Positions 28,829 through 61,906 of a DNA stretch of 64,000 nt are shown here, one piece after another. The translations under genes and the position numbers were made by a program. Under the pieces are notes generated by a model that saw only the letters and a program-made list of their open reading frames with translations, was not told where the DNA came from and ran no database searches. The first letter of the stretch is position 1, and each line of letters begins with the position of its first letter. Source of the stretch: Pseudogymnoascus verrucosus (lineage: Eukaryota); assembly GCA_001662655.1 (NCBI GenBank), contig KV460229.1. One strand, written 5' to 3'.

Positions 28829-28888
28829 ACATACGACCATAGACTTAAGAGAATTAGGCATCCCGTCTGCTCCGCCATACACAAGCTT
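28829..28888 (+). rRNA. 5S rRNA gene, 5' half only (interrupted)
   Basis: ACATACGACCATAGACTTAAGAGAATTAGGCATCCCGTCTGCTCCGCCATACACAAGCTT matches the 5' ~60 nt of ascomycete 5S and the copy at 40448-40566, then diverges (weak similarity may run to ~28906). Confidence 0.88.
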
Positions 28889-28968
28889 GTAATTCAGTAG
28901 ACTAATGCTCTTAATCATGCTAATAGGCATAGCGTGGAATCTAAGCCCCTTACTGCCTTAAGGGTTAA

Positions 28969-29033
28969 CGTAAGGGTAAGTAGGGTAAGCTAAGGCGTAA
29001 GTAGAGTAAGTAGGATAAGTAGGGTAAGGTAAC
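28969..29033. repeat. Degenerate 9-bp tandem array (GTAAGTAGG)n
   Basis: GTAAGG GTAAGTAGG GTAAGCTAAGGC GTAAGTAGA GTAAGTAGG ATAAGTAGG GTAAGG. Confidence 0.7.
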
Positions 29034-33320: not shown

Positions 33321-33546
33321 TTCTTATAACAGTTCCGTATATAGTTATAAGTATAAGAAAGGTAGGAGATTCTCCTGTTTTTATACAATAAAGCCACTTC
33401 CTAGGGTTAGAGCTGCTAAATTCAGCAGGACGTAGTTGCTGCTTTACATAGCCTCTACCTCTCGCTAAATCTAAAGGCACGTGAACGCAACTCACATCGC
33501 AGCCCTACATCGGTATTAAGTAATAAATTGTATGTATTGCTGACTA

Positions 33547-35575
33547 ATCATAGGTGGAAGCGAGTGCGTCTACTTACTTACGAGAGGAAGCAAGTACGTC
33601 TACTCAACTTGCATATGTTTACTGCTACTCTTTACTAAAACTTTAGACATTCCCCTACATAGTAATTTATATAGTAATCAAATGTAATTCATTTAATGGA
33701 AGGGACACCTTTATTAAATGCCTGTGAATGGCTAGTAGCAAACCCCTCTAAATCTATAGGTGCTACTAGTTGGATTTTTAAAGTCCTAAAGTCTTCTATA
33801 CAGTTAAGAATTACCTAAGCAGCTCTAAGGAAGCCACCCTATAGAGGTTAGAATAAGGTGCTTTCTACAGCTTAAATAGAGGCCCTAAAGACCTAGATTA
33901 CAGAGCAATACCACCTAGGGCTTAGGGCTAATAGGCATATGGTCTACGGGGTAGTATGCCACCTACGGAGCCTACTACCTCCACTGACATAGAGCTGGCT
34001 TACTAAATATATTAAGAGGGAGCTTATGGATTTTCACTTTATTACTATAAAGCCTATTGCTTGGCAGCGTACGCAAGCTCATGAGCCTATAGATGTTATT
34101 AAGTGGTTTAAAGAGTACACAGAATTAGTACTACAGCGCCATATAAATCTAGAGTTAATCTAGAATATAGATGAAACTGGTTTTAGGATTGGAATTCTAG
34201 GAGGTAAGAGAGTTATAGTCCCTAGAGCTATAAAGCAGCTCTATACGCTAAGTCCTAAGAATCGTATATCTATTACAATTATAGAGGCAGTATCTGCAGC
34301 TAGACAGAAGATTCTACCTATACTTGTTGTACTAGGTAAAATTCATATGGAATCGTAGTACCCTAAAAACCTCTATGGGGACGAGCTGATACTACTCTCT
34401 AAGACTGGCTATTCTAATAGCCAGCTTGCTCTACGGTGGCTACAACACTTTATAGAGCTTACTGCTCTACACAACTAGGAGAATCCTAAGCTTCTACTCC
34501 TTGATTCTCATGGGAGCCATAGGAGCGATGATTTCGTCATTCTTACTGCTAAATATCACATCATTGTATTAGCCTTTCCTAGTCACCTTACACACGTTTT
34601 ACAGCCATTAGACGTAGGAATATTCCAACCATATAAGCACTAGCATAGGCAAGCTGTGCTCCGTGCCATACGAGAGATGGATATTACCTACAACCTACCC
34701 TAATTTATGAGAGATCTCCCATAGATGCAGGAGCAGACCTTTAAGGAATCTACCATACAATCAGCGTTCTAGAAAGCTGGAATCTGGCTAATAAGCTGTA
34801 ATACAGCCCTCGAAAAGCTATGTACGTACTCGAGCCCTACGCAACCTACAGAGCCTACTACACCTACCCTACCAACCCAGCCTGTAACACCTATTCCTTC
34901 TACTTTCTAGGGTGTAGAACAGGGCCTACAGCGGTGGAAGGAGCGGGTTCCGGAGGCCTTCAGTAGCCCCTCTAGGCAGAGCTACGGCAACTAGCTTACT
35001 AGTGCAGCCTAGGTTCTGGCTGCCGGCTAGCTCCAGCAACTTGACCTACAGGCTATTCGGCAGCAGGTTAAGAACTCGAAGAAGAAGCGGGGGGGCCGGG
35101 GCCGGCTCTAGCGTGGAGGTGAGCTCCGGGCTTCTGAAGCCTACGAGCTTCAGGCTAAGAAAGCTGAGCTTCAGGCCTAGAAGCTCGCTGCCACCGAAGC
35201 TCGTAAGCTGAGCCGGGCCCAAAACCAGGCCTGGAAACAGCTCGAACGAGCAGCAACTGAAGCTCGGAAGCAGGAGCGAGCCCGGGAGCGAGCCCGGAAG
35301 AAGAGCCTGGCTCAGCTCACTAAATTAGGCCTCCCAATTCCTCCGGAGTTGGAAGACCCAATTACTAACCTAGATTCTGAATCTGAGAGCCAGTATGAGA
35401 GTGCGAGTGAGGGTGGGAGTGGGAGTGGGAGTGAGGAAGTGATAATTTCGTAGAATTGAAATTTTAAGTACTTTTACATACAAATTACTATGGTTGGGTA
35501 CTTACGGTCGCAATTTGAGAGGACGCACTCGCTTCCTCTCGTAAGCGAGTGGACGCACTCGCTTCCACCTACGAT
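33547..35575 (+). mobile_element. pogo/Fot1-family DNA transposon (2029 bp), RIP-mutated
   Basis: ~55-bp TIRs ATC(A/G)TAGGTGGAAGCGAGTGCGTC..., TA TSD. Transposase relic NIDETGF...LLLLDSHGSH...LQPLDVGIFQPYK. Confidence 0.93.
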
Positions 35576-36005
35576 TATGTAATTAACTACTAGGAATTAC
35601 CGATATTCCGTACGGAGATCACGTGAGATCATGTAACTATTACAACAATCGGTTACCCTTCAAACGGTTCCTAGTTCCTAACTCCTATGATTTGCTTTCT
35701 GCTTTCCGTTTCCCTCTTTTCTACTTAACCTAAGGTACTACTTGCCATCATGATTATAAGGGCCACTACACAATGGACTACCTAGCCGCTCGGACTGGCT
35801 ACTTGTATAAATACCTTGCGATCCTGTCGCCAACATCCAGCACTAGCTCTTCTAAGAAGCTTACCCTCTTACGTTATCGAACAAGTCAGCCTAATAGATC
35901 CTTGTCTCCTAAAGGCAGGCTCCTTATGACTCTGTCTACAGATCTCTATGTTCATTTTGTTATCCTAAGCCTATTGTTGAGTTGCCCATTATGTCTACTA
36001 AACAA

Positions 36006-38541
36006 ATGGCTAACTAGCAACTGCCTACTCTAAAGCAGAACATAATAAGTTTTGTCACTAAATGAACAAGACATGCTCAACAGCTAAAGAAGCCTAAGCG
36101 CACTGCTAAGGACTACTAGGCTATAGGTTAAGAGCTCAACACTAAATCTTAGAAACCTAAGGATGCTAAAGCCATAAAGGAGAATGTCTAAGGCATATAG
36201 CGCAAGTAGACTAAGTAAGTTAACAATGTCCCCCTTAAGGCTCCTATCACTTACCTAAGATAAGGTTCTGCGCTTTTTAGGGTGTAGACAATGTGTAAGG
36301 AGCTATTTAACAATACAATAGGGGGGCAACTATATTGTTCCTATACTTTATCTGTAAGAATTGTAAAGTTAAGGCATTCAACTCTATCTACTAGTACCTA
36401 CTTTAGTTCAAATAACTCTACAATTAGATTAATAGGTGTTATATAGATACAAACAATATAAAAGAGGTGTTTAAGGTATACTCTTGTATTTAATGTTACT
36501 TATAGAAGATATAACACTAATGCTGTATATATAGTATCTAGATATAACCTTAGCAGATAAATTCAAACTTAAACAAATAATAAAGGCTAAACTAGTGTTA
36601 GGAGCAGATAATATCCTTCTTCTCCTTACTTACCTCTAGGCTTAGGATACCTCTATATTTCTAATTAAGGACTAACAGTTAGCACTTATAGGTGTAATAC
36701 TCCTTTCTATCTATACTAGTTGCTAACCTGCTAAACTAGTTAACACCTTAAAGTATGCATTTAAAAAGACTACCTCTTGTAAACGCCTATATATAGAAGT
36801 CTAGGATGCTGTTAATAAGTAGATAAAGATAAGTGTGTAGATAAGGGAGATAGATTAGATAAGCTGAATTATTAAGGGCAAGAGCTATAGGATAATGAAA
36901 ACAATACTAAATATAACAATAATTACTTTAACCCTAATACTGTAGAATGTAAATATAAGTGTCTATGCTATAAGGATATCTGTCTCTAAATTGTTTAGAA
37001 CCTTATATAGGGAAAACAAGACTTTATAGGAATAGAGATCACTTTCTCCTATTACAAAGGTGCTAATAGAAAACCAAAACTGTATGTCCCTCTATAATGC
37101 CTCTCTCTTATCCCAACTAACTTTATAACTTTAGTACAACTTTTCTCTTTTATAAAGAAGCTCTTCCTATACTTTGCTCTATTAGCTATGTCTTAGCTAT
37201 TGCAATAAAAGATAATGCAATTGAGGTTAAAGGCTTGTTGTAAGTAGAGCCTTTTTTTGCAAGTCATCTACAGCACCCTATTAAAGCTGTACTAATACAC
37301 TAAAGGCTAGAGATGCTTAAAAGGCCTATATTCTATTAGGCTGTATACATATGTAATATGTTCTATATATTAGAGTAGAAGGCTCTACACTACTTAACTT
37401 ACACTTACTACCTTAATTGTCTTAGCTAGGCAACTAGTTTTAAGTAGAAGTTAACAAGCTACTGTTTTTGTAGAGGCATAGGAAACACTGTTAATAGTAA
37501 ACTTCCTATTAATTATAATTTACTCTAACTAACAAGTGCATAGGGGCTGTAACAACAGCAGTTTGCAACTAGATACTAAGACATAATCCCTAGACTAGTG
37601 TCTTTTGTAGATTATACAACAATAAGAAAGTTAGGTTTATTATTTAAGATATAGTACTAGACTAGCCTACTAATTCTGGCTTTCTCTAGGCCTTTATACA
37701 TATAAGCCTCACTTATAATCCCTATGCACCTTAAATAGTGCCTAATAAGGTTTGCAATGCTCTCCTGCCTAATCTAGAGCTAGTGTAGCTTAAGCTTAAG
37801 CAGTAAGAGCTTTGCTTAGAACTTAAGCATTTATATAGACACATATTTATTTAGGGTTTAATTAGAACAGAAGCTAGTGAAGAATATTGTTAATTAAATA
37901 GACAGATTGCTATAGTAACAAAGATGCTTAAGTAAGAGCTTAAGAGGGAGTACTACTAGGACTACTTCTACTATATCTACAACAAAGAGCTTAAGAAGAT
38001 CATAAAGAAGGTTATAGTTATAGCGCTAATATATATTAAGCTAGTTGTTAAGCACTAGCTGCTAGAACAGACCTAGCTTTAAGAAATCATATGCAACCTC
38101 TTAAAGGATCTCAATCTATACAACATTGCTATATAATAGATCTATGCTATTAACACAATAGTTGCACTATCTTGTTGCTAAGAAGTCTAGTGTTATAAGT
38201 TGCAGCTAAGCAAATTGTCTTTAGCATCTTCTCTTAGAGAGTCCCCTTTGCTAAAGGAAGAATTGCCTGTTCCTGATATTTTCCCTCTTAAATGTAAGAA
38301 AACTCAGTGTATATTTTGTATTAGTAACAATTAACAGAGTTATAAAAGACAAATGCAGACCTTCTCTAAACCTAACAAGATAATGGACTATATTAAGAGG
38401 CATTTAGAAAGGAATACTATAGGGGCATTTAAATGCTGCTATCTAGTGTACAAGGCAGAAGGGGTAGTTCTGAACAAAGTTGTGCTTTTTAAGATTCACG
38501 TTAATGAGGTGCACAAGATTAAACTTAGAGATAAACTATAA
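36006..38541 (+). pseudogene. DUF3435 tyrosine recombinase (Starship captain-like), RIP-inactivated, multi-exon
   Basis: Read-through translation gives YTSC*PAKLV (~36712), KCLCYKDICL, SYCFCRGIGNTVN (~37460) and ILRHNP*TSVF..LY (~37575). C-terminus FPLKCKKTQCIFCI...IMDYIKRHL...FKIHVNEVHKIKLR matches the DUF3435 layout as I recall it. Confidence 0.85.
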
Positions 38542-40401
38542 CGTACATGTATAGCAAATGTGCAAAACAAGCGAATGTACAAAAATATCGCAACCACCCT
38601 ACCCCCTAACTAAACTCGATAATTCTACCACAACATAACATGCCTTTTAAAAATGACGAGAGAGAGTTGACCTTAGCTATCTAAGCTATTTAAAGAGACC
38701 CTATGCTACGCCTTTACGCTATAGCTAAGACCTATTCTATAGACTACTGCAAGCTTACTTGCCGTCTACATAGTATGCAACCACGACGTGATATTATAGC
38801 TAATTTACGAAAATTGTCAAACCTAGAGGAATCAGTCCTTGTTCAACACATACTTAACCTAGCTGCTAAAGGATTTCCTCTATAGATGTCTATTGTTAAA
38901 GATATAGCAAATCGACTACTTGCAACACGCAACGCGCCACGCGTTAGGTCGCGTTAGGCTTCAAACTTTGTAAAGCGCCACATAGAGCTCTAGACACGCT
39001 TCTAGCGCAAATACGACTACTAGAGGGCTAAGTGTGAAGACCTAGAAGTTATCTGTGGTTAGTTTAAGCTTGTATAGAATACAATTGCAAAGTATGGAAT
39101 TAACGATGTAGATATCTACAACTTTAATAAGACTAGGTTTATGATAGGTGTTATCTTAACTGCTATGGTTATAACAAGCTTAGATAGGCGGGCAAAAGCA
39201 AAGAAAGTACAGCCTAGTAATTAGGAATGGGTTATAGTAATCTAAGGCGTTAGTTCTCAAGGCTAGGCAGTACTGCCATTCATCGTTGTTACTAGTAAAA
39301 ACCACCTTGCATCTTAGTATAAGAATAGTGGATTTCTAAGCGATTAGGTAATTGCTGTTATAGAAAATGGCTAGACTATAAACGAGAGAGGCATGGATTG
39401 GATTCAGCATTTCAAGAAGCATATAAAGGCCTAGAGTGTTAGTAGTTATCGCCTCTTAGTCCTTAATGGTCATAAGAGCTACCATTTAGATAAGTTTAAG
39501 GAGTACTACAAGGAACACAACATTATAACTCTCTACATGCCTGCTCATTCTTCCTATATACTCTAACTGCTTGATATTAGCTGTTTTAGCCCTTTAAAAA
39601 AGGCTTACGGTCGGCAAATTGAAGATATAATATAAGCTTATATTTCTTACATTACTAAGGATGACTTCTTTCCTGCCTTCTACGCTGCATTTAACATTGT
39701 AATGATAGAAAGTAACATTTAAGGAGGCTTCTAAGGTGCTGGACTTCTTCCATTCAACCTAAATAGAGTGATCTCTACACTTAATCTTAAGTTAAAGACA
39801 CTAACACCTCTAAGCTCCTACCCTAGTACCGCTTAACCTTAGGTTTCCTAGACGCTAAACAACCTAATTAAAGCTATGTCACAGTCTACATTTATTAAAA
39901 CTCGGATTTCACACCATTAAAATAGCTCTCTAACCTTAATCTATGCAGCTATTGACTAGTTTACAAAGGGCGCATTGCAAATAATGCATTAATTAGCATT
40001 ATTAAAGGCAGAGAACCAAAACCTACGACAGGTAAATGAAGTACTAAGCAAGCGCTAGAGGGCAAAAAAAACACGCCTACGGCAAGGAGGATCACTTAGT
40101 TAACAGGATGCGTAGGATCTACAGGATGAGAGGGACGTTATGCAGTAAGTAGAGCAGGAAATAAGGGCAAGTGGTAGTTGTAAGCCGAGGGAAGAAACCT
40201 ATGCTCGTTGCTATGGAAAATGTAGTGGGACTAAGCATAATGCGCGCACTTATTAGATTAAAATAGACACGTCTAAGGAAGAGGTCTCTAAGTAGTTTTA
40301 ATTGATTTCTAGTGTTGTGGTAGATTTATTACAATTCATATAGGGTAGTTGCGATATTTTTGCACATTCGCTTGTTTTGCACATTCGCTATACATGTACG
40401 T
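38541..40401 (+). mobile_element. pogo/Fot1-family DNA transposon (1861 bp), RIP-mutated
   Basis: TIR ACGTACATGTATAGC(A/G)AATGTGCAAAACAAGCGAATG at both ends, TA TSD. Transposase relic from ATG 38640 (IYNFNKTRFMIG, LVLNGHKSY, C-terminal knuckle relic). Confidence 0.94.
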
Positions 40402-40447
40402 TATACATCTTGAACAACTAGATATTAAAAAATATATATATATATAT

Positions 40448-40566
40448 ATATACAATAGTAGGTATTCGCTAGTAGTCACCTACCTAACTACTAATCTACT
40501 GATCTTAAGGTTATGTATAGTAGAGCAGATAGGATGCCTAGTTCTCTTAAGTCTATAGTTGTATGT
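40448..40566 (-). rRNA. 5S rRNA gene, full length (119 nt), RIP-mutated
   Basis: The minus strand reads ACATACAACTATAGACTTAAGAGAACTAGGCATCC...TTAGTAGTTAGGTAGGTGACTACTAGCGAATACCTACTATTGTATAT. It is followed by (TA)n and a T6 run resembling a Pol III terminator. Confidence 0.9.
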
Positions 40567-45717: not shown

Positions 45718-45911
45718 TATACGTAGGTTATTTTATATGAAACCATGTTTACAATGATTGGAATTTTTATATTAGGTTTGCTAGTCTGTATCAATCGTGC
45801 TATCATAATTATAGCACTTTGTCCTTGTATAATACTCCATGGTGTAAGGTGCAGTATCTGGTAAATTCTCGGTATATAACTACATATTTACTCTGCCAGT
45901 TACCATTCCGC

Positions 45912-47483
45912 TTATAAAGTATACTTGTAATCAGGATGATGATCGCCCAACGCCTCCCTCTGCTCTTCCAATGGCAGGTGTGCAACATCGTTTAGTAAGT
46001 GCTCCCTATGGCTCACCTTCTCTCGGTTCAGAGATTTAAGCCAAACCAGGTTTGCAGCTAGCAATACTACCGTCACTACGCAGAAAGACAGGTTGAGCTT
46101 TGCCGCAAACGCGTAGTGTGGAGCGTCTTTCTTAGGATATATCCATGTGCTGAGAATGCCGCCTGCGTTAGTCATGATGAAGCTGAGAGCGACTGCCGTG
46201 GCGCGCCGCATATGGGAGGCTGAGTTGTTGGGGATCCAGGATATCATAGATGGTGCAGAGGAATATACTCCAATAATCAGGAAGCACAGCGCCGTATACT
46301 TTTGTCTAAAGCTTTTAGCAGTTAAGAAGAGCGCAAAGCCGATAATAGCGACTAGTGTGGTGGTTATTGCAGTTAGGCCTCGCTGTTGGTAGTGATCTGC
46401 CGTATAAGCCAAGATCATCGTAACGATGAAAGCCAAGACGAAAGGAGGTACGGTAAGAAGCTGCGTATTGGTTGGGTTGAAATTGAGAGTCTGAACGATG
46501 GTAGGCGTGAAGTATGCTAGGCCAAAGAGACTGTAACCATTGCAGAAGAGGGCGATCACGTTTATCCACACATGTAGGTCTTTGAAAGTAGAAAGTAAAG
46601 ATTTCCACGAGAACTTTGCCCCCTCGACAGAGTTTGCATCGAGAGTAAGTCGGTAATCGCAGTGGTCAGCCTGTGCCTTCGTGAAAGTCTTCACACCTTG
46701 TGGATTGTTTGGCATGGCCCAGAAACACAGGGATGCGAAACAGACGGTAAAGAGTCCTTCTAGGAGGAAAATCCACTGCCATCCGTGCATGTTGCCAATG
46801 CCATCCATTTGCTGAATAGCGGCGGTAAGGAGACTAGAGAAGGCGCCAGAGAGAGCAGCGGCGGAGAAAAAGAGGGCAATCCTAACTTGCAGCTCATGAG
46901 GCCGGTAGAAGCCAGATAGATAGAGGACAATGCCTGGAAATAGGCCACCTTCGCAGAGACCGAGGAAGAAGCGACATGCAAGAAGGCCTGAGTACGTCTT
47001 TATCTGGGATTGAAGGGTCGTCACAATACCCCATGCTAGCACCATCCCTGGAAGCATTATCCGCGGTCCAATCTTTTTGAGGACGAGATTTGACGGTAAC
47101 TCAGCCGCAATATATGGCACGTAGGTAACGGTGATGGCTGAAAAGGGGGTTAGTCCCTGAAACTTTCCATATATCTTTCTTGGGAGACAAAGGGGGGGCT
47201 TACCAATTTGATACTGGGTATCGGAGATGCCGAGATCCTTCTGGAGGCCAGCAACTCGAGCGTTTCCAATATTTGCTCGATCTAAAAACGCCAATAAATA
47301 CATCGAGGCCAGAAGAGGAACCAGCAGAATATCCAGCCTAAACAATGTTTTCTTATCAAATGAAGGGTCAAAATAGTGGCTCAGACCCTCCTCAGTCTTG
47401 GAGTTTGGCAGAGCACTTTCGTTGCGAGCCATCTCTAGTTGGTCTATGTCCATCTTACCGTTCGTAGTATCGGCGATTGTCAT
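45912..47483 (-). CDS. MFS transporter, ACS/Dal5-Tna1 family; 66-nt in-frame intron 47138-47203
   Basis: LAFLDRANIGNA, ELPSNLVLKK, LGLCEGGLFPG, GWQWIFLLEG and C-terminal DHHPDYKYTL. ORF is open. Confidence 0.88.
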   Translation of the reverse strand: MTIADTTNGKMDIDQLEMARNESALPNSKTEEGLSHYFDPSFDKKTLFRLDILLVPLLASMYLLAFLDRANIGNARVAGLQKDLGISDTQYQIGKPPLCLPRKIYGKFQGLTPFSAITVTYVPYIAAELPSNLVLKKIGPRIMLPGMVLAWGIVTTLQSQIKTYSGLLACRFFLGLCEGGLFPGIVLYLSGFYRPHELQVRIALFFSAAALSGAFSSLLTAAIQQMDGIGNMHGWQWIFLLEGLFTVCFASLCFWAMPNNPQGVKTFTKAQADHCDYRLTLDANSVEGAKFSWKSLLSTFKDLHVWINVIALFCNGYSLFGLAYFTPTIVQTLNFNPTNTQLLTVPPFVLAFIVTMILAYTADHYQQRGLTAITTTLVAIIGFALFLTAKSFRQKYTALCFLIIGVYSSAPSMISWIPNNSASHMRRATAVALSFIMTNAGGILSTWIYPKKDAPHYAFAAKLNLSFCVVTVVLLAANLVWLKSLNREKVSHREHLLNDVAHLPLEEQREALGDHHPDYKYTL

Positions 47484-49449
47484 GATGATGATTAGGCCCG
47501 GGAGGAGTTATGTAAATGACGGCAACTACAAGTCATAGAAAATAAAAGAGGTTCTCAAGTGAAGAATATAATGTCACACGCCGCTTCCTTGGTGACACGA
47601 CGCTATGATAGACGTGGGCCACGAGGGATGATTGCTGTTTGGAGATAATTCGGAGGGTATTAGGACGTCTTATATAGCATTCGACAAGCCAACATCTACC
47701 TAGAATCCGTCTCGTGTTCAAATCTCCAGCGATCCACAAGTGTCTAACAATACCATATATGTATATGTATATATATATCCAACGTTTCTTAGGTACACCT
47801 CCCTGGTTTGTTCTACATATGGTCCAGAGCTTTGACAGGGGTTCAGTCCAACACGATGCCATATTCGGTTACCGCGTCGTAGACTACGACAACAAGCTTG
47901 CGGGATGCAGCAGCGCCAAGAATATCCCGCAGCAGTCATAATTTCCAGATCGCCATTAGTTCCTTTGCAGCTAACCTGTGCCGGCGTATGCTTGTGAGTG
48001 GCTTCGAGTTGCCGGTCGTTATTTGAAAGGGCATGCGACGATTCGCTGTCGGATGTTCAGGGCTGTGAATGAAATGGAATGTTTTCAGCTTGCTGTCGGT
48101 ACAGTCAGGAACTGACGCTTACGAGTTCATGCTCCGTTGGCTCTCTTGTGACAAAGAAGGGCCAAGCGAGTATTGCTGATAAATACGGCTGAGTGAAATC
48201 GAGTAGAAATACTAGATTTTGACCGTTTTAGATCCGATATCCTAACTCCCGACAGCTACGTGAATATAACGAAAGATATGTACGACGCGGGGTATGAAGC
48301 AGATGACTATTCATACATGGCCATATACAAAACCGTCCACGGCATTTGTAGTGAATAGCGCAGCATCGTCAATGAGGGTGCTGACCTGATTCTATCATCT
48401 ATCTTCTGTGCACTTCCCCTGCTGCAGGAGGTGAGGTTGGCCAACTACTCTCTGGGTGGACACCCACTCCCAAGTGGCCCCCTATAGTATTACCCCAGGT
48501 ACTTCAGGCACGCAGGTGAATTGACAATGCTGCTTTTATAAATCTTCAAATACGATCTATTTCACTTCTCGGACAGGACATTTTCTATCCGCAAGGAACA
48601 CCGTCCAATTCATTCACCTTACTCGTCTGTCAGAAGGCGCAATATCACGCTCTCATGACGTCGACACCACTATCTCAAGAGAGACACAACAAAGTCTGGA
48701 ATGCAATCTTTCAGAATGAGATGTGGACTTTAATTGCTTCTAGCCATGGTCTTAATCCCACCGCCGTCGGTCAAAAACTGAATTCTATTTATGACATTGA
48801 TCATACTACAGGGAGTCAGTGGGCCTATATAGTTTTGGTGATAGGAGATAAGAGTAAGGATTGTGGTTGGCGAGAAATGGTGAAGGGAGAGGGCGAGGAT
48901 GACACCAGAGATGCCGAGGCCGATGATGGTGACAGTTTAGAGGTACATGATGGTGAAGGATGATAAGTAGAGATGGATGGAAGCTTAGTATGGGCTGCTA
49001 GGGAGAGTGGATTCGGGCTTTCAGACGCCTTGAGTCTCTCTCTCTGCGCTTTATGTAAACGGCTCGTGTATTGGCCAGGATGGCGTTTTCAGATACGCTC
49101 CTGTCTAATTGCTAAATTGCCTGAGATGGTGGTTGAAAGCAAAGTGTGGCAGAGTCGGAATTGTCAACAAGTTGCGCTACAATTGACCCCCCACAAGCAC
49201 ATGTCTTGACAGTTATTAGGGTGGCCTCTTCCCCAGACAAGAGGTATTTTGCAGTCAGACGGACATCAAGTTGTTACAAGACGACTCAACGGTAATTTAC
49301 TCATTATGGTATTCCTTTTTATACAGTACTATGCCCGCATAGCTGTCATTCAACCTGTCTATATTTCCAAGTCTCAAAATCTAATATCTCATAATACACT
49401 ACGATTACCACTCGTCAGTCGTCTCATTTTCTTGTATCGTTAACTCCCT

Positions 49450-51240
49450 GTCATGCCATGTAGGCGGATCTTTCCTCAAACACAGTAAAATCGCCAACGC
49501 CCTCGCCTACTGAATGCCCATAACATCCGCAATCTTTTCGAGCCGCTGTACTACCCACGTCCTCATCACATTCGACACCATATTCGTGCACGCGGCTGTA
49601 AATAGTTGCTAGAGTAGCAAATTGCCATAGGCGGCACGGGGTAGCTGCTCTGATTGTGGATGTTCAGTGAGTAGATAGCTCCCGGAAGGCGCGTCGCAGA
49701 GGTAGTAGGGCACGCTCGCGCATATATCCTGTGTAAGTTGGATAATGAGAGCGCGGCTGTGGAATATCTGGGATTGATATTGCTGTTGCAATAAGAATTG
49801 GCTGTCCTCGGCTAGATTCGGGAATTCCTCATCCTCATCTTCGTACTGCAATTTGGACTGGCATAGATGGCTCAGCTAGACGATGAGAAGTTCATTCAGT
49901 AGAATGCGGACGCTGCGGTAGCTATTCTAAGAGGTAGCAGTTAAAATGCTAGAGTATGTGTGATAATAATCCGCGAATACGGCATCGGAGCGGGCTATGA
50001 GAGGTACGGTGTTGTAGCCGTATGGACTTTCCGCCGCCTAGGCAGCAAGGGAAGCTTCGATCATCAACGCGGCGTATACAATGGCGGCAGAGTTAGTGAA
50101 GTCATGCATTGAGGTCATGAGGGAGCGTAGGTTACAGAATTCGATGACTAGAAAGGAGAGTTTGCTTGTAGTGAGGTCTTCGCCCCCTTCATAAGGGAGG
50201 GATAAGAGTGACTAGGAGGTGATGGTTTCAGGAATTGCTACACGCCTTTGCATGGAGTTGATCACCTTTGCGAATGTTAATACTAGATGCTGAAGCTCTG
50301 CGGAAAGAGGCTTACAATTTGGGTCCGCAAGTAGCAGAATATTTAGCGGCCTGTCTCTGTTTAAAGCTGTTCTTTACTACGAAGATATAAGATCTGTGCA
50401 GCGCCATTAACGTGCTAGGTCCAAGATTTCATTGACCTTGGAGTATTGCATGTATTTGTCTACCATCCCATGTTAGATGTGATTTAGAGCAGGCGTCATA
50501 GCACGTACTTCAAATAATCCTAATAACATCACCGTAATGAGTGTTTGATCGGCTTTAGCATCTTGAGTGCATAATGCGCTGTTTGTAGCGCTTACTGCAC
50601 GATTATACTTTACTTTGGCTGCATGCATAACACTCGAATTGTTGCTTTTAGTATGTGATATACCAACCATGCTAAGGGATATGACCACATTGGTTAAAGC
50701 ACTTCCTACGGTCCCTTGGCAGTTTATAACGTCTAGGATGTAATCGAAAAATCCCTTAGTAGATTGACTTCCTTCCTAGGAATAGTTTCTTAAGAAATAG
50801 CACGTGGCCTAGAAATCCAGGGAATCGCGCAAAGCTAGGGATATTATTTCAGCTAAGACCTTAGACTTAGGACTTAAATGGCGGGATGAACTCTAGCTGA
50901 GAGCGAAGCTATAACTGTTAGACTTAGGACATGAACGGCAGGGTGAAGTCTCGCTAGAAATGAAGCTATAACTAGTTGCGGTTGGTGGCGATTTAGCACG
51001 ACCTTAGCGGACGAATTTCTAGGTCTGATTAACGAATCGATGTTCTGATAGATCCTTGTATCCATGACAGCTGCGTCTAGCTCGGATACATTGACTGTAG
51101 GATGGCCTTGCTTAATTACACTGTAGTACTTAAAGTTAGCGTCCGTCTCGACTTTAGAGAGCTCTCTCTAGGGAAGCGAAGGTTGAGACTAAGTTACTGA
51201 CCTTAGTCCTCTTTGCTCGACACGGTGCGCATCCTTTACT
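49450..51240 (-). pseudogene. Fungal-specific transcription-factor-domain gene (Zn2Cys6-associated type), RIP-damaged; Zn cluster not located
   Basis: ATCYFLRNY, AKVKYNRAVSATNSAL..AKADQTLITVMLLGLFE, *T*HVNGAA, NSYRSVRILLNE, DICASVPYYL and WVVQRLEKIA..MGIQ*A. Multiple TAG stops. Confidence 0.7.
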
Positions 51241-52236
51241 TTGCTTCATAGCAAAACTCATACTATAGGGGTGTTCTAAGGTTAGGCTGTCGTAGCATGC
51301 GTAGAAATTAGAAGTCTAGAGGTGCTAAGTGGATGATATAAGCCTCGTCGTTGCTAGTTAAAAGGGATGACTTAACAAGACGAAAACGCTAAGTCTTACT
51401 AGCTAGCGGTAGTGAAACTAGCGGTAGAGTGAGGCTAATGATGACTATAGGTCATCTATCAGTAACGGAGTAGATAAGGTGTGGCCGATGAGCTGGAGCG
51501 TGGTGGCAAAAGTAGTATTAACAATTAGGGGCGAACCCGTTTAACCCTGGCGCCAAAGATGACAAGCTTTTAGGTTGTGACGATCGGGCCACTAGTGCTC
51601 TTCGGGAAGGAAGCTCGTAGCGTGGTCTGCACCTACCGACGCCTAAACCGCTCAACAAACACGGGAAATACGAGAATTCCTTTGCCCGCAACCTGGAACT
51701 TTAACCACTAATGCCAATGATTCATGTAGATCTTCGATATAAGACTTTATGGCGCATGTTATCTGCAGGCTTGCGTATTCCTGCCGCGTAGTTTCTCGGC
51801 TCTCTCGACCTAGCCACTCAACTGCGTACCCGCAACTCCTCTGTCTACAGTAAATCAACTAGATGCGGCACTAGCGATGCTTGTTAGGGTCCACGGTGCA
51901 GGTTGACTGAAACGACCCCATAGTCGCGAGAGGGGGCTGTCGTAAGGTGAGCACTACAATCCTGCTTGCTACTTTAGGGTCATGCCTCGCAAAAGTGTTT
52001 GTAATGCTACTTCGAAGATCGACCATTTGCAACATTGCGAGGAGGTATAAATGTCTTTAGTATTGTTAGGGTAACTGCACGAGATAGGAGTATAAGGTTA
52101 AGTGAACAGACTCTCTTTCAATTCGTTCTATCATTTAGAATCATATTCATCGCTTCATCGACGTCGTTATATCATCGCTCCTACATTTCATTCTCGTTTC
52201 CTTAATCCCCTAGCTGTACATCGTTTATTAATTAAG

Positions 52237-53165
52237 ATGGGCCTGAGTTAAAAAGTCATCGCCATTATAGAACTCTGCGTCTATGTCCCTATATTCTTCC
52301 TTGCTGCCTTTGTCGTTTTCCGCCATGGCTTCCGCAGACAGCTTAGATGGATCTACCTAGTGATATTCTGCGGCGTCCGATGCGTAGGTGCTGGCTTTAG
52401 AATTGCTAGTAAGGCGAACCCTAACAATGAGACGGATCAGGAATGGTCAGCTATTCTCTAATCCGTTAGTCTCAGTCCGTTACTTATGGCCACACTAGGT
52501 CTTTTAAAGAGAATGTGAGTTACGACGGAACCTTAAGTGACGAATATACGCTAACTCCGACTTTAGAACTAATGAAGTCTCCCTCACCATACCGTCTAAT
52601 TCGTCATTAGGGTACATGAACAGTCTAGCTAGTGCTGGTGCTATTAGAAAAGTGTATGTTACTCCTTTACTGTTAGCCCACACTTGAACTAACACACCGT
52701 TATAGGAGTGGTATCATTACTAAACGCGCTACCGCCATTTCCCGCCGAGGCTGTATCATTCAAATCGCACAATTGCCCACAACAATCGCTCTTATCCTCT
52801 GTATCGTCGGCAGCATAGACGAGGCCTCATCTAACCTGTCAAGCCGCAGCGACGGTCCTAAATACTTTAAGATCGGCATTGCGATATTTATTGTTGTCTA
52901 CTTGCTTCTGGTGTTCTTGACCCTCATTACTGCTCGGGATGTGCATAGAGCACCAACTAGGGAGCGCCGTGTCTACATTACTGTTGCTGTTGCGCTCCCT
53001 TTTATTGTAGCGAGGCTACTTTAGAGTATTCTGTCTGTCTTTATGACGTTTAAGTCTTTCTCTATAGCTGGGGGAAATACTGTCGTTAAGCTCTACATGG
53101 CTCTCGTTGAGGAGTTTGTCGTGGTGGTAATGTATACTATTATTAGGCTCACTATTTCGAAATGA
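52237..53165 (+). pseudogene. Multi-pass membrane protein (RTA1-like/DUF7702-type), RIP-damaged
   Basis: IAIIELCVYVPIFFLAAFVVFRHGF...WIYLVIFCGVR...LSPLLMATLGLLKR and VALPFIVARLL*, with internal stops. Confidence 0.65.
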
Positions 53166-54404
53166 GAGGGATACTACGGAGGTTGTGCTTCTGCGGAAGA
53201 TGAGGTAATTGTTACTCCTCGCTACAAAATAAATATTAGCTGTAGATTTAGCTAGACTAGGTTGATTTCCTTTAGCTTCATAGCGCTTTAGACGGGATTG
53301 GCGTTAGGGTATAAACTTAATATACGCTTATAGATTTCCATGTCATATAATTTTATTTTACTCTAATATTACAACTTAGTACTTTCAAACATCAAAATGA
53401 TTTTAGGAGGCCTTTAAAGGGCTTCATCTGGTTTTATTTGCTCTACTCTAACGAAATTGAAACCGGACTAGATAATAACTAGATAATAACTAGAAGTCTT
53501 ATAAGGGGACTACGTCGTTGAACCTAGCAATTACAACAGTTGCGAATACCTCTAAATGTGCACTTGCAAAATTACACACTAGGAATTTAAATAGATCTGT
53601 GGAGCTCATCAGGACATACGATTGAGCTTAGAGCCTGAAAATAATTTCATTAACGATATGGTGTATCATTACGGACTTAGCGACCCGTTAAGGGGCGCGG
53701 TTTGTCATTAGTTGTAGCTTTAAGGGCGGATGAAAAGGCTGGAAGACAGTGGGCAATATTAAAGGAAGGCAGTAAAACATTTAGGCTAGCGAGTGGTAGC
53801 CCTAGGTTATGCCATTTAAGGGTAGAGGCTTGTAGTGTGCGATTTGGCTACGCTAGCGCCTTGCATCCACGCCGTTATGCTAATTAAGGCTAGAGGCTCG
53901 TAGTCTAGAACGAATGCCTCATATGTAGCACGGAGTCGTGGGACACACTAAACAAAGTGCGCGCAAATAGAGTACTTCCTAGCGGCTCTATTGCGTATTT
54001 CCTCTAGTAACTCCTAGCTTTTCTTGTTTTGCATGTGAGCAATAGCGTACCTTTAGTTGCTAAGCTAGAGAGGAATCTAGACGCTAAGACCTCTAAGCTA
54101 CCTTAACGAACCTGTTTCCATTTTAGGCTTCTGCTATGATGTTCTTGAGTAATCATTTTTGTGGCATTGCTACGTCTTAATGTCCCTATTTAGAACTAGT
54201 GTTTATAGAGCCTTAGCAAATGCAAATATTCGCAGTAGTACACAATTCCATTCTATATAACAGTGGGTGTTGCTGTAAGTGCTTCCTTAGGTGTTCCTTA
54301 TATTCACATATTTTACCTATCTACTATTTTAATTTACGTCATATTTTTAGATACGCCAACCTATCTCTTTCCTCATCAAAAAGACTCTGCCTATATTAGG
54401 AGCT

Positions 54405-56260
54405 ATGGGGAAACTAAGAGGTCTCCTATCATTAGGCATTAGCCTTGCTATAGAAGCTGCTTCGGCCTAGAGTTTACAACCCCTAAGGGTCTACGACTCT
54501 TTAAGATACGAAAGTAGGTTCTCTACTATAGGACAACTTTAAATTCCCAAATACTGAAATAAGAAGGAGCAAACCACCATTTAAGAAGCCTAGATGGGTT
54601 TCAGCAGTCTCAACTTGCGCACTTTAGTAACGAGAACTATGCACGAACAGAGTTTAATGAGGCCGGCAACGAAATTTACGACGGGCAACAATTTCGCTCA
54701 GAACAGCTTTTAACTTAAGGAGGCCTCTTATATCCCGTTGTTATCCCTTAGCGTAGGCTAGAAAATAAAAGTCGTGGTTAGTCTAGGGTGTATGCTCCCG
54801 CCCTCGAAGGTTGCAGCATTGATCAAGAAACATTTCTGTCGTTTATTGAGTCATTTAACAGAGAGAGCTAGGTCTGTTAATTTCATTTTATGCCTGGTGG
54901 CGAATATTGTTCCATAACCGATTAACGCTTACTAGCATTTGATTAACAGTCTTCTCCTTACCTAGATGCTGTTAACGTGGCAGCGCTTCGAGTGGGATTT
55001 ACTCTAGGAATCGCGCCCATCGTCATTTCAACTGCTCTGCTAATTGCTGTACAATATGCAAAACAATCTCAGACTAATTATAAGTAAGCCTACTTAGTGT
55101 TTGAAAGATCTAGACACCTATACTGATGGCTTAATCTCCGTTTAGAACAAAGACATACTTGGATAGAATGAACGAAGAGCTCTTCGTCCCCTATGGATTG
55201 TTTGCTATGGTTATGACATACAAGCTAGAGCAATCCAGCACGATTGTCAATACCAATTCAATTTCTTCTTTGCAATTGCAAGACACTGCAGCAAACAGGT
55301 TCGAAAATCCAGAAAATATTCGACCCTAAGGATTCCAAATGCCTAAGGCGTCTCCTCTAATTTTTTTCGACGCTGGATCTCTTCCTACTAATAAACCATC
55401 TAACTGCCTTAACAAGATCACCGATTTTATCTCTAACTACCATGACTGTTGAGCATGGGCACGATTTGTAAGTGTTTACTCTGTGGACTAAGTAGTAGGT
55501 CGTCTAACATATCATTAGGCGCAAGATAATCTAGGCTTACCCCTTGCTAGACCAGCTCTAAAGTTCAGTAACCGCTTCGCTAACCCAACGTTAGCTAACA
55601 ATAATAGCAGCTTACTATTGACAATATCTAGAAACGACTGACGGAGTGACAAAGAAACGAGCAAAAGATTGAGAAAAGAGGAACGAAACGCTTAAAAGGA
55701 AGGCTGTAGAGGGCTAAAGGACAATGGAAACGAACGTGGGCACCTTATACACGGACTTGTTTCAAATCTAACGGAGAGGTCCGGTTATAGCGGAAGTTTC
55801 GGACGGGGGCGCCCTCGACTTATATTAGGTGTGCAGGGTATTGTGAATGGCTCTAGCTCATCCATAGCAAATAGGAAGGACTAGGGCCTTTTGAAGTCCA
55901 TTAAGAGCATTAGGGCAAATTCAGATGTGCTATATTTAATGATCGTTAACAACCCTATATCCGACATTACCTCTCGTGAACCCCGATCTCTACATGGTAC
56001 GAGACAGAATCTAGAAGAAGGGTATGATTAGCAAGAAGATCTACGACTTGACTATTCGTACGACGGCGCACTGTCTAGCGAACGGTTTAATCTAAGTGAT
56101 AGGCATGATCTAACGCACGATGAGCAGTATACTACAGACAACGATGGCCGTTTCGAGTAGCAGGTGGCGCCATACTAGTATTAATATTAGCATGATATCC
56201 CTAGCAGCCTACCGCTGAGATACAACGGCATGGTCACAAGACGGGATATAAGGCTGTAAA
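54405..56260 (+). pseudogene. Conserved fungal hypothetical protein, RIP-damaged
   Basis: PVVIP*RRLENKSRG*SRVYAPALEGCSIDQETFLSFIESFN, YLDRMNEELFVPYGLFAMVMTY and DVLYLMIVN. Introns and stops present. Confidence 0.6.
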
Positions 56261-57457
56261 AGTGGGATCGAAATGATGACAAGGAGTACTGTGTGACGGG
56301 ATTTTAGGTTACTGTCCGAATATGTGGGATGTATTTTTATTGTAGGTTTGGTTATGATGGTGTTGTTAGATTTGGAATTAGATGAAGAACAGTACGACTC
56401 GTTTAGGAGTTATTTGGAATTGCGAAACACGACACAGGCTAGAAGGTTAATTTAACCTTTAAATCCACCTGAGCCCTGTACTAACACCTCTCCTGTAACT
56501 GCGTACTCACTTCTTATGTGCAGCTAACCTATGGCTGCGTATTCGCCTAAAGCTTACGCTAGATTACGTTAGGGGCCTCGACCTATTAACGACGATCGTT
56601 TGCTTGTTCTCTATGAGTGTAATAAGGACAGCTTCTATACTTACGAAAATAGTAGATATCCGTGATTTGTAATTTATTAAGGCTCTTTTGTTGCTTATAC
56701 GAGTCTAAAGCTCCGATCTCCACTTTCCCCGAAAATCTACTCTAGATTTTGCCTGAAGCATGATTTGTGTTCTTTTCGACTGCTTGTTTAATCACTTACA
56801 TACTATTGTATAGTAAGCGCGCATTAATGGAGAAACATCATGCAATCACTAGCGAGGAGTCCCATGAAGGTCTGGATGGCGCTAGAGACCTAAAAGTACT
56901 ATTAATGGATAGACTAACAACGAGATAAGCCTATATTAAATATAGCATTTTGAAAAACATACTAGTCATTGCAGAACTAGCGTATATTGAATGTTAGTGA
57001 TTGACGGCTATGAGAGTTAGGTTTTAAATTGCAGCTGGCTTTTCCTTTTACTATAATAGCTCTACTGCAATACGAAGCAGGTCCTAATCTAAGAGTTCCA
57101 TTACAGCTGTTGGGGAAAATAAGTCTAGTACGTTATAGACAATATGAGATCCTTGAAGATTGTCTTTCGTTAAGCAGTTTAGGAGGCGGAAGGCGTTTGC
57201 ATCGCTTACGACCTGTAGCTATCGTCAGCATTAATCTAATACTGTATAAAGATAGGCGGCAAGATCACTAGATTTGAGTAGGCTACTAAGCCTATGTGCT
57301 ACATGACGGAGCGGCTAAGTAGCTAAATAAAAGTCGTAAGTGTTGTTCTAAGAACTTCAACTTTGCTAGGACATATCAATTAGAAGGATAGACGACTGAG
57401 GCCAAATTTAAGGGCTAAAGCTATGCTCTAGCTAGCATAGTGTAGCCAGCCTCCCTT

Positions 57458-59090
57458 TTAGAGAAGATACTTGAAATATAATCCTCTGTCCCCTTCTTTG
57501 CCATTTTCCGTCTCTCCATCTGCAATAAGCTTCTCCTTCTTTATATTGCAGCTTCGTAGCACTAAATAGATAGCCCCTACTCTAAGCAGAGCAATACACT
57601 CACAGGCTAGCGATATAGAGTTTCTGATAATGTATCTAGGTGCATCTGTAGCAGGATAAATGTTTGATGATAGGACACCGGAGACATTGGCAACAGACAC
57701 GAAGATTGGAATACTAACGGATTACTTATAGTCTAGGGCCAAATTGATAGAGATCCACGTCAAAACAAGGTAATTGAAGATGTAGATGCCTATAAATGGT
57801 TTCTGTCAGTAGCTATTATAATGGAAAATCGCGTCTAAGAGTATCGACAAACGTACTAGAAGTAACAAGGAACATGGCAAAGTAGCTAGCAGCAATATTA
57901 GCAGTTCTAATTACTATGGCATACCCTATTATGACTGGAATTGGAACGACTGCTAATAAGGTTACCTATGTGTTTAGACGATCTGAGAGGAATGATAAGA
58001 CACTAACGGCAATGGTCGCTATAGCATATACCGGAATGGTAAGGTAGTTGGCCTGAATAGGGGTGTACCTAAGGGCCGCCATGTTAGCGGATATCTTAAC
58101 TACTGTAAAGGAGAATGTAATCACCCGAGGCCCTTAATAATGGTAGGTAAGAATGTGCCAAAGCTAAGTAAATAGATTGAGTTAGCGAAGAGGGTAATAC
58201 TAGCTAAATAGACTAACGGGTTAGCTACAGCCATTGTAACATAGCTCTATGAAAAGGTGTCGCTGCCCTTATACATGAAGTTACGCTGTTTCCTTGCGCG
58301 CATGACCTCCTTCTCTTTAGCTGTGAGAAACCATGCCTCCTTAGCGTTTTTAGGCATGCTTGCCTAGCTGGCTATGCAGATCACAATGGAAACAACACCC
58401 TTAATAATGAAGAGCCATCGCTAAGTAGACAGACTAAGGTGGGTGCCTATTGACTAGATTCCATAGGCAATTAGACCTCTAAATGCTCTAGAGACAGTGG
58501 TTGCAATATAAAGAATGGCAACTCGCTTTGCTTAATGTTCTTAGGACTAGATGGTCGAGATGACAAAAATTAAGGATGGGAGGAGACTAGCTTTAAAGAT
58601 TCTAAGGAGGAGCTAAACTACGACTACTTGTGCGTATGTTTAGATGAATCTAGTACTAAGGGTAATGGTACCCTACCTAGTAAGAGCAACAGCAAGGGTT
58701 TTGTCTGTACCGAACCGCTTAGTGGCAACAACCTAGAATACGTTAAAGACGATATATGTAGGGTAGAATACAGTGGATATAGTGTTGAACTGGTTTCTAG
58801 ACAGGCTAGCACTAGCTTCGAATCTAAAGACCTTTGCATTTCCTGTAAATGAGTGAGCCTTACACCCTACACCTTGTACTGTGTATGAGTAGTTACTTAC
58901 TAATGTTGGAACGATTAAGGTATGCAATTAGAACAAGGATGGCCATCTAGGGGAGCAGGAATTTGTTAAACTTGGCTAAGGCCCGCTTCTCGATGACAGG
59001 ATCCATAAAGATGGTAATATCGATATCTAAATTCTTAATATCAACCACCTAAGAAGATGTCTCTGTAAGAGAGGAAGTTTTCTCTATGTT
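57458..59090 (-). pseudogene. ACS/Dal5-family MFS transporter, RIP-damaged
   Basis: FNKFLLP*MAILV, *RWLFIIKG, YLTIPVYAIA, NVSGVLSSNIYPATDAPRY and GDRGLYFKYLL*. Many stops. Confidence 0.78.
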
Positions 59091-60089
59091 GGTATTTAGG
59101 AATACAATTTGTAGGAATGTCTTAAAGGAATAGACTTTATTCTAAATCTTTACCTAAAGTACAACACAAGGCAGAGAGAGACACTTTATGTAAGTAGATC
59201 CTACGCGAAAGGGGCTAAATGTTTTGGTATTAGCCTGTTTAGTCGGAAGGTAGGAGTTGCTTATCTGTAGAGTTGAAGGGTTTAGGACTTTAGCTACCCA
59301 TGCCCTGAATTTCTCATACGGGAAATGATCTGCACGTGTCTGAACCGACCCGCCCATCCCTAGATTCTAGCCGATTAAGGGGTATACAGCAGGCCACGCG
59401 GACACTCTTACTAGAAGAGGTCAGTATCTTATCTTTTAATTCATTGTGTTGTGCGAGCTTTAACTGGTTCGACTGTAGATCTAACAATGCGGAGATATAT
59501 GGTCTCTTAGCACAATGCCACAGATGATCCATGATTCTAGGGAAGTCGCCCTACCATTGCCATCCCTACAAGTCCGAGCCGCATCTCCGAAAGTCCACTA
59601 TCTGTCCCACAACTCCGAGACGCCAACTAGGACTCTACGCAACCTTGTAGAATGAGGCAGTGGAGATGAGGTTTCTTGAAAACTAACATTTGCTCATTAG
59701 CACAGCAAGAATAAGTGACCTTCCGCGGTTATAATGCCAGCCCACACTGTTCTAGGTTCAACCTCGCAGTCTAAGCGTTCACAACGTAAGGACTTTACCT
59801 AGGGGCTGTCAATCTAGCAATATAGGTAGGTGGGACGACAGTCCCTGGTTCGTGAGATCGCAAGCAAAAGCTGATCATGGAAAAACTTTGTAAAATTGCG
59901 TCATGGATCTACTAAAACACAGGTCGTGATTATTACTGTATAGTATTCTTTAGGCGTGTTACCGTTGTAGGCAATCATTAACAAAGAATATCTACACGAA
60001 ATGGGGATCTAAATTAGACTTGATCTAATTATTATGACTTGCTACTTCTTGAAGATGCTTACTAGATGTTAAATCTACATACACAACTC

Positions 60090-61530
60090 CTTAACCCACG
60101 GACTCTGTTTACTGAAATGGCTCCTTAAATAGCGAGTCATACTTCACTTCCACCGCAGCCTCATCCTCCTAACCTTTGCTAAGCACCTTATCCCTCTCCT
60201 TACATGCGGCTATGCTGCTAGATATCACTTGCATACTGCCTTGAGCTCTTACTCCTTTCACTAGTGCTACAGTCTAGGGTTGTCTTAAAATTGAGAATTA
60301 GTTAAAGACCCGCTGTAGATCCTTAATAGAGATGTCGGCATTGCTTTTATAATCGAAGGTAGGGAGCATTTAGCTTAAGTGATAGCAGTCCTCCCTATAA
60401 GAACGAATATTTAGTGAACGAGCTTAGTGATGATTATACACTGTACTCACAATGCTTAGTTAGCACCTTGTCCGAGATGTGGGCTAGTTAGGTGTGCAGC
60501 ATTGCTAATTAGAACATAACGTCCTAGTTTAGGGCTATACCACAACTTTAGTTTAAGATGAGGTCGATTGTACAACCCGTATTTGATGATTCTTTCAGCT
60601 CTACGAATCAGTTCTAATGCTAGACTGCTCTAATCCTTAAAGTCCTCTAATAATGAATCTTGCTCTAGAATCATTTTAGCTAGGGAGCATATTTTCCATG
60701 TTTCCTGTGCTTTGGTTAAGTCTCTTTTTGTAATAGCCCACGATGTCGTAGTAGTAGTAACTAGATAGTAGATGAGATGTGCCCTAGGGCTGTATAGGTT
60801 AAGAAGACTAGGGCGCTTCTGCAACGATAGTGGTGTAGGGGACATTCTGGCAGTCTATCTTAATATTAGCTTCTGTTAACAAAAACTGCAGTAATGGTAG
60901 TCCTACCTGTATTAGACCTATGTAGGCAGCCTCCTCCAGTTGTATTTGGTGCTCTTTTAGTAGTAAGGCTCTAGACATAGCCTTGATACCATTACACCTA
61001 ATAAGTATTGATCCTTCTATACGTTTACTGTCCTCTAAGATCGCTATAACGCCATCTTCCTTCTCTAAGATGGTTTTTAGTTTCCATCCTTTGTGAACTT
61101 TAATGTCTGCGTCGATTAAAGCGTTCTTTAAAGTCAAGTTGAGTGTCGTCCGCTTAATTCCGCAAGCTGGCTAGCTGTACTTGCTCTGCCACTTAGCAGG
61201 ATTATATGATACTCTAATGGTCTTTCTAGTATAGTTTGATCGCGAAGTTCGCTAAGATGAGGCACTTGCTAGGTGACTACGTCTGCGAGGCCCACGAGTG
61301 CTAAAATTTTCAATCTAAGTTATGCTAAGTCACTGTTAGATGAATTAAAGACAGGTGAGATAACATACCCATTAGGCATTATCATTAACGATGCTCTAGC
61401 ATCTCCTAACTCCCTCACTTTCTCTAATACGACTAGGGTGTAGCCTTTCTTTTTCAGCAACAAAGCAATAACTAGCCTAGCTACTCTACAGCTAATAATT
61501 AGGACTTTTAGCTCTATATCAGCGTTTATA
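60090..61530 (-). pseudogene. FAD-dependent monooxygenase (salicylate-hydroxylase-like), RIP-damaged
   Basis: KVLIISCRVARLVIALLL (GxGxxG eroded by G>A), GIKRTTLN, LIRCNGIKAMSR, and an AAH...HLGQGAN relic. Confidence 0.75.
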
Positions 61531-61774
61531 TACTGTTCTAGAATTGAATGTTTAGGGGGGATAGTCTTCTACAGAAGTAATGTTAATTGAATGGGTAGGA
61601 TAATTATGTAAGAACGTTTAAAAGCGATTCTTAACAAGAAGTAGACATGACACAATCCAATTGCTTAAATATTTTCAACACGATCTCGCAGCAATTGACG
61701 TCACAATCCTTTAGAGGTGGAAGCTATAGAGCCTGCCATCTACGTTGCCGAGTGAGTTAGGATCGTATGGTACT

Positions 61775-61906
61775 AGGGAGCTGAATGAATCTCCTTCAAA
61801 ATCCGTGTCGCGGTCGCTTAGATATCGCTCGGACTTGTAAAGGGAGCTGAATGAATCTCCTTTAAAATCTGTGTCGCAGTCGCTCGGATGCCCCTCGGAC
61901 TTGTAG
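61775..61906. repeat. 66-bp imperfect tandem duplication
   Basis: AGGGAGCTGAATGAATCTCCTT... starts at 61775 and again at 61841. Confidence 0.88.

Follow-up and report, generated by a model that had tools for sequence, protein, structure and literature searches.

What gene once occupied positions 36006 to 38541 of the 64,000-nt stretch of Pseudogymnoascus verrucosus contig KV460229.1 analyzed here (the window), what destroyed it, and to which mobile element did it belong? The original prediction was that the span hides the captain of a Starship element, a DUF3435 tyrosine recombinase inactivated by RIP; whether this captain groups with those of the 5S-targeting families was raised as a question. 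In the following, G000 denotes this genome, and C and L numbers denote contigs and loci, respectively.

A captain pseudogene with five exons

The locus beginning at 35991 is a RIP-destroyed Starship captain. When stops are read as X, PF11917 (DUF3435) matches one forward frame significantly, at 36.7 bits (cut-off 25.8), and a second forward frame at 23 bits, which is below the cut-off; an intact relative scores 228 bits. A search whose query was the final exon from a sister copy with less damage retrieved 16 DUF3435 proteins, the best of which was P0005 (OBT74038.1), a Pseudogymnoascus protein of 783 aa. In a tblastn comparison, P0005 aligned with the window in six pieces extending from 35991 to 38535, and 477 of 775 codons (61.5%) were identical, so the match is not due to chance. 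The six pieces represent five exons on the forward strand (35991-36214, 36265-36475, 36535-37081, 37135-37496, and 37544-38540), of which the third is interrupted at 36818 by a 1-bp deletion, and the splice dinucleotides agree with those of two intact relatives. The deletion is the sole indel in the captain gene relative to these relatives; it is not of the RIP type and could be older. The pseudogene (35991..38540) contains 51 in-frame stops, the earliest of which is at residue 9.

It had been proposed that the recombinase motifs can be recovered by reading through the stops in a single frame from ATG 36006. We rejected this reading, as that frame has no Pfam match and the gene needs four introns and crosses the deletion at 36818. 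Every motif that had been named is present, in the predicted order. The bounds of the gene also required correction. ATG 36006 is the second in-frame ATG and is found in three of four aligned copies, while the start is ATG 35991, which is found in all four. The TAA at 38539-38541, where the gene had been thought to end, was created by the junction with an inserted DDE transposon. The native stop is a TGA at 40411-40413, beyond this transposon, and the last captain codons together with the TGA (40404..40413, forward strand) have the same context in C6, C27, L195, and L196. The 62-aa open reading frame noted earlier is found at 38353-38541, and four more of 44-86 aa overlap the span.

A structure model made from the alignment of the relatives had Cre recombinase as its top fold matches, with a weak E value of ~1e-3. 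Since the model was modest (mean pLDDT of 63, with residues 461-507 below 50), motif and conservation were used instead to identify the catalytic residues, and we take their roles to follow the R-K-H-R-H-Y scheme. The catalytic pentad of the recombinases described in PMC11162782 was also used for the roles of the residues. As predicted, the box-I Arg has been lost to a stop (TAA, 36724..36726) and the box-II Arg, that of the YxxR motif, is now a Cys (37469..37471); both Arg codons differ from those of the intact relatives by C>T/G>A-type changes only. The positions of the Lys, the Tyr of YxxR (at 37460, in a motif that the relatives read as YCFR), the His, and the Tyr nucleophile are unchanged.

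Assignment to the Phoenix family

Judged by best-hit labels, the window captain appears to belong to the Phoenix family (fam01, clade 1, YxxR) and not to group with the 5S-targeting families. Despite RIP, it is 61-62% identical to OBT74038.1, KFY94130.1, and KFY36155.1, all of them fam01 captains, and OBT74038.1 and three further members of the cluster are entered as fam01 in Table S4 of PMC11162782. According to that paper, fam01 is the Phoenix family of clade 1, YxxR replaces HxxR in clades 1 and 3, and the median identity between captain families is 25.8%. The same text links Phoenix to AT-rich sites, with mostly AT-rich or transposon insertion sites and the repeat TTTACA in the type element, and links 5S sites to Enterprise, Arwing, and Voyager. 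In the window the insertion site is a RIP-mutated repeat nest with 37% GC in its 1-kb bin, although the nest may postdate the insertion. The left terminus reads TTTATA(C/G)AA, and a right-hand counterpart was not found.

The window captain shares the 783-aa DUF3435 layout and YxxR with OBT74038.1, the Phoenix captain of Pseudogymnoascus sp. 05NY08 (Gluck-Thaler and Vogan 2024, PMC11162782). Like fam01 captains, it has four introns in the same places, is the first gene of its element at a short distance from a conserved left end, and may have inserted at an AT-rich site. Unlike OBT74038.1, the window copy is a pseudogene with 51 stops, one frameshift, and two insertions, and it has a whole 5S gene 3' of it, a kind of cargo for which no description was found in the text consulted.

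The captain points inward from its element's 5' end and, if nested repeats are left out of account, lies ~480 bp from the left end, compared with 481 bp in L195. The left end (33380..33513, forward strand) is sharp and starts with TTTATACAATAAAGCC, and the same start follows unrelated upstream flanks in the window, C20, L195, and L196; matches to the left end occur at 12 places in G000, most of them short relics. The upstream region of the captain has been interrupted by a ~100-bp solo-LTR-like repeat (33514..35647) with a 5-bp duplication, ATCGG, and this repeat is itself split by a DDE transposon (33545-35577; DDE_1, 63 bits). In C20, L195, and L196, the left end runs without a break into the remaining upstream region (35648..35990 in the window, forward strand). 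At the other end of the gene, a Pot2/Fot1-like DDE transposon (38541..40401, forward strand) with 65-nt inverted ends, a TA duplication, and a DDE_1 match of 63 bits sits in the last captain codons; its sister copies are 92-93% identical. An all-against-all comparison and a search with the inverted-repeat motif among the loci examined gave no convincing right end for the captain's element, and neither a direct repeat nor an empty site was found.

A 5S-targeting Starship that probably encloses the captain's element

One could suppose that the captain belongs to a 5S-inserted element that ends at 28890 and is therefore a 5S-targeting captain. At 28829..28889, on the forward strand, a host 5S gene is represented by its 5' half alone (positions 1-61; 93% identity to the major 5S). 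This half-gene junction, 7 kb upstream of the captain, and a whole 5S just downstream of the captain speak for such an origin. We use family A as a working label for the 5S-targeting Starship joined at 28889/28890. Its ends have at least 43 (right end) and at least 34 (left end) matches in G000; among the best 20 loci of each kind, 13 right ends follow 5S positions 1-61, which is the junction seen in the window, and 13 left ends adjoin a 5S 3' part. On C52, C25, and C27, however, the captains of family A have 5S 3' halves as neighbors, which makes 28890 a captain-distal end (28890..29011, 75% identical to the same end on C6), where the RIP index turns positive and the RIP block starts. Since the captains that adjoin the left ends are HxxR captains (P0079), only 22% identical to P0005, 28890 is the far end of a different Starship. 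Moreover, the element of the window captain starts separately, with a left end at 33380 that is 4.5 kb inside the family-A right end, and no 5S was found upstream of this end in the copies read (the window, C20, C3, C119, L195, L196, L199, and L200). Phoenix elements are reported at AT-rich sites (PMC11162782). A 5S-targeting captain is thus a very improbable reading of the locus.

The simplest reading is that a Phoenix element is nested in a derelict 5S-targeting one, and nesting of Starships has been described (10.1101/2021.12.13.472469). As in Voyager, Enterprise, and Arwing, a 5S gene is split at the 28889/28890 boundary, and the genome holds many such junctions; unlike those Starships, the window captain's element does not split a 5S gene and would have a whole one inside it. 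Diverged, partly RIP-mutated duplicates of C4, C11, C3, and C1 segments (87-92% identity), with MFS, DUF7702, and hydantoinase-like genes by Pfam, occupy 45724..64000 and are cargo candidates for one or other of the two elements; the stretch from 40.6 to 78.7 kb as a whole may belong to the inner or to the outer one. From 57026 to 78710, which is beyond the window, the sequence is colinear with a C1 segment at 82-91% identity, with an excess of RIP-type changes in the window copy, and on C1 this segment stops ~400 bp short of a family-A left end with a 5S 3' half. Within a segment duplicated on C4, an MFS transporter frame of 523 aa (45915-47862, reverse strand) is open, and neighboring duplicated genes have stops.

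Several other features of family A were observed. Its core, AAGCTTG, corresponds to 5S positions 55-61, and its end matches are similar in number to the whole 5S matches in G000, of which there are 43. Head-to-tail junctions, composed of a left end, an AAGCT(T/C)G core, and a right end without 5S, occur at six loci (L144, L155, L158/L170, L166, L168, and L174) and resemble an integrated circle junction or a tandem insertion. At L145, L156, L157, and L164, right-end-like sequence lies off the usual cut site, 40-60 bp 3' of a 5S that is either a whole gene or a 3' half.

RIP as the probable cause of captain death

What destroyed the captain? RIP is the best-supported cause, and the spectrum of changes supports it well. 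All nine Trp codons have been turned into stops, and 48 of the 51 stops stand opposite Gln, Arg, or Trp of P0005. C>T/G>A changes on their own can produce 243 of the 298 amino-acid differences from P0005, whereas the reverse changes can produce 17. Compared with the intact relative L196, the window copy has 494 C>T/G>A changes, 56 reverse changes, and 80 transversions, with changes at 57% of CpA, 64% of CpG, 11% of CpC, and 7% of CpT sites. Deamination of methyl-cytosine could account for part of the CpG changes, and CpA and CpG signatures have both been reported for fungal transposons (PMC4352252). The block of strong RIP signature around the captain extends from ~28.9 to 45.5 kb. Similar duplicates are present within G000, namely a full copy on C20 (25 stops; 88-89% identity to intact relatives), a half copy on C6, and fragments, and no stop-free, full-length captain was found among the 27 matches in G000, the best candidates having been scored.

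An alternative is that the captain was already dead, from the frameshift or from transposon insertions, and that RIP came later. The 1-bp deletion at 36818 and the insertions at both ends of the gene are compatible with this order of events, but they are outweighed by the pattern of the remaining changes. Non-synonymous transversions are not in excess: dN/dS from transversions, a class of change that RIP does not make, is 0.20 and 0.28 when the window captain is compared with two intact relatives and 0.27 when these are compared with each other (746 codons), and hence the gene shows no trace of prolonged neutral decay ahead of RIP. The gene has a single indel, and the tail transposon displaces only the last codons. 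Compared with three sister loci, this transposon is missing 31-37% of its CpA sites and 24-26% of its CpG sites, a lighter load than that of the captain, which suggests that much of the RIP preceded its insertion. An earlier death of the captain is accordingly unlikely, and we retain RIP as the probable killer.

We also considered whether the window and C20 copies inherited their RIP mutations from one dead ancestor. All 24 stops of C20 at Gln, Arg, or Trp sites are also in the window copy, 11 of the 12 stops at Gln common to the two follow a pyrimidine, and the copies share four transversions, while 52 and 33 are private. Because of the pyrimidine context, the few shared transversions, and divergence under purifying selection, common inheritance was rejected in favor of convergence at hot spots.

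The earlier interpretation of the losses as the work of RIP is supported, within limits. RIP stands as the best-supported killer, but with the first stop at residue 9 the catalytic-site losses are incidental. In Urquhart et al. (PMC10104507), which reports RIP of duplicated Starships, a frameshifted captain was rescued by a wild-type captain, so captain loss alone need not immobilize an element. No intact captain that might help the derelict element was found in G000. The captain locus resembles the RIP-mutated Starships of the Hephaestus crosses described there (Urquhart et al. 2023), in which duplicated Starship DNA acquires C>T/G>A changes, and captain-less or immobile Starship remnants are said in that text to be common. 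The captain locus differs from those crosses in being a natural relic from another family and another fungal class, with a bias toward CpA plus CpG.

A 5S rRNA gene behind the captain

A whole, RIP-mutated 5S rRNA gene (40447..40566, reverse strand; RF00001, 47 bits) lies 33 bp after the native captain stop and is oriented head-on to the captain. When metagenome contigs were scanned, 11 loci were found. At one of them, L195, the captain is free of stops, exon by exon its identity to P0005 is 92-97%, and 290 bp after its stop there is a whole, head-on 5S (75.8 bits). The left flanks of L195 and the window are unrelated, and that of L195 has no match among the long G000 stretches compared. The two 5S genes belong to the same lineage. 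Relative to the major host type, the window 5S has 19 RIP-type changes and two others, the bases C26 and C57, both of which are common to the L195 5S; the window and L195 genes differ from each other at 19 positions, 18 of them by C>T/G>A.

It is possible in principle that the 5S is a resident host gene and that a short, captain-only element inserts just 3' of 5S genes, or landed there once. A left-end-like sequence, TTTATACAAT, lies in reverse orientation ~12 bp from the 5S end in L195, and the window and L195 have just ~30 bp in common beyond the 5S. Yet the upstream flanks of host 5S genes differ, whereas the window, L195, C2, and C33 have one in common. The 18 nt upstream of the window 5S are identical to L195 at 15 positions, and among 61 distinct 5S upstream flanks only those of C2 (17/18) and C33 (16/18) come equally close, while the other 57 reach at most 12/18. 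C33 and L195 have a further 700 bp in common beyond the 5S, and the TTTATACAAT motif also occurs beside an unrelated host 5S on C12. A resident 5S gene is consequently quite unlikely.

The captain lineage instead appears to carry a 5S gene along with its element. C6 and C44 have the captain-5S spacer and its 5S end in common, and the window lacks ~260 bp of this spacer. Five loci in G000 (the window, C6, C44, C2, and C33) have the carried 5S plus element sequence, and four of the five copies are broken inside the 5S: by a family-A end at the usual position 61 (C33), by a 6-bp deletion at that site, by replacement of the first bases, or by a cut at 104. The 5S fragments on C20 (32-80), C3 (1-80), and C2 (20-50), which are downstream of left ends or of the captain and whose flank is lost or does not match, were left out of this count. 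The Rfam scan covered the seven outside relatives whose downstream DNA extends for 1.8 kb or more (L195, L196, L198-L201, and L203); of these, only L195 has a 5S 3' of the captain, and the 5S would therefore be optional cargo. The evidence that the linked 5S moved together with the element is good, that for a function of the 5S is weak, and passive capture is its likeliest origin.

A bolder idea is that the Phoenix lineage has its own transcribable 5S as first cargo, spreads 5S genes, and provides a docking site for 5S-targeting Starships, from which nested giant elements would arise; we regard this idea as tentative and rather doubtful. Docking on the carried 5S is plausible as a consequence, and the one carried 5S that family A has cut (C33) shows no preference, since family A cuts ordinary host 5S genes equally well. 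The carried 5S has an AACCTTG variant, and we rejected the notion that this variant shields it from family A (core AAGCTTG), as the C33 copy has the variant and is cut at the usual position; the variant is also in five stand-alone host 5S copies (C59, C31, and C27).

Proposed history and significance

We assign a probability of about 80% to a history that combines a nested Phoenix element, a captured 5S, and death by RIP of a gene previously under purifying selection. The Phoenix captain, as a tyrosine recombinase, would excise and reinsert its element. In the proposed sequence of events, a Phoenix Starship entered the far end of an older 5S-targeting Starship at a site rich in AT and in transposons; the left end and the outer junction can be read directly, and from them we infer the nesting and the order of the two Starships. 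The Phoenix haplotype would have carried a captured 5S directly 3' of the captain, an arrangement seen at two independent insertions, with the two probably moving together. Because similar sister copies, ~88% identical, existed elsewhere in the genome, RIP would have struck ~60% of its CpA and CpG sites. Given the mutation spectrum and dN/dS, RIP probably killed a gene that was until then under purifying selection, and it mutated the neighboring 5S as well. The gene received small transposons at its two ends, the tail one probably after much of the RIP, and the element is now derelict.

A dead captain is in itself ordinary, as RIP-mutated Starships have already been described and the captain cluster has been catalogued. 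What is new is the 5S as a linked feature behind a captain. In a limited check of the open-access literature, in the text accessible, 5S as Starship cargo was undescribed and 5S appeared as a target only. A Starship carrying a 5S links the AT-site family to the 5S-targeting families; the carried gene suggests one route for the multiplication of dispersed fungal 5S genes and for the formation of nested Starships, and it could give other transposons a place to insert. There is also a caution for annotation, in that a captain seen near 5S fragments, such as the window captain, would be misfiled as 5S-targeting. The diagnostic bases and the flank make the carried 5S testable in public genomes of the genus.

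Additional observations

A minor 5S type (ACATAACCTTG at 51-61) has five stand-alone copies (C59:183537, C31:17 and 222, and C27:165174 and 165580), which include two closely linked pairs. The first 5-20 bases of the 5S are replaced at L206 (C44:66884-67003), L148, and C20:317614; C44 and L148 have upstream sequence in common, a hint that a third element targets 5S close to the Voyager site. Three 5S fragments (L095, L073, and L109) end at position 80 and adjoin GTAGTT, which is the repeat of an Aspergillus flavus Starship in Table S1 of PMC11162782. On C44 and C26 (L023-L025 and L029) there are two near-identical-looking DUF3435 pseudogenes of another lineage, at 108 bits each and with stops.

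The remainder of the window also has features of note. Left of the 5S junction, 1252-26421 is gene-rich and without RIP signature, and its genes include two P450s, a P450 reductase-like gene, a GMC oxidoreductase, a short-chain dehydrogenase, a glyoxalase-like gene, and two MFS genes. Direct repeats of 249 nt that are 1794 bp apart lie at 30686-32728, with a third, inverted copy at 29866-29982, and are LTR-like. An element at 41978-44616, presumably Ginger-like, has 129-nt inverted ends, a decayed integrase-like frame at ~42500-43100 with no Pfam match, and a 12-nt repeat tract at 43300-43900.
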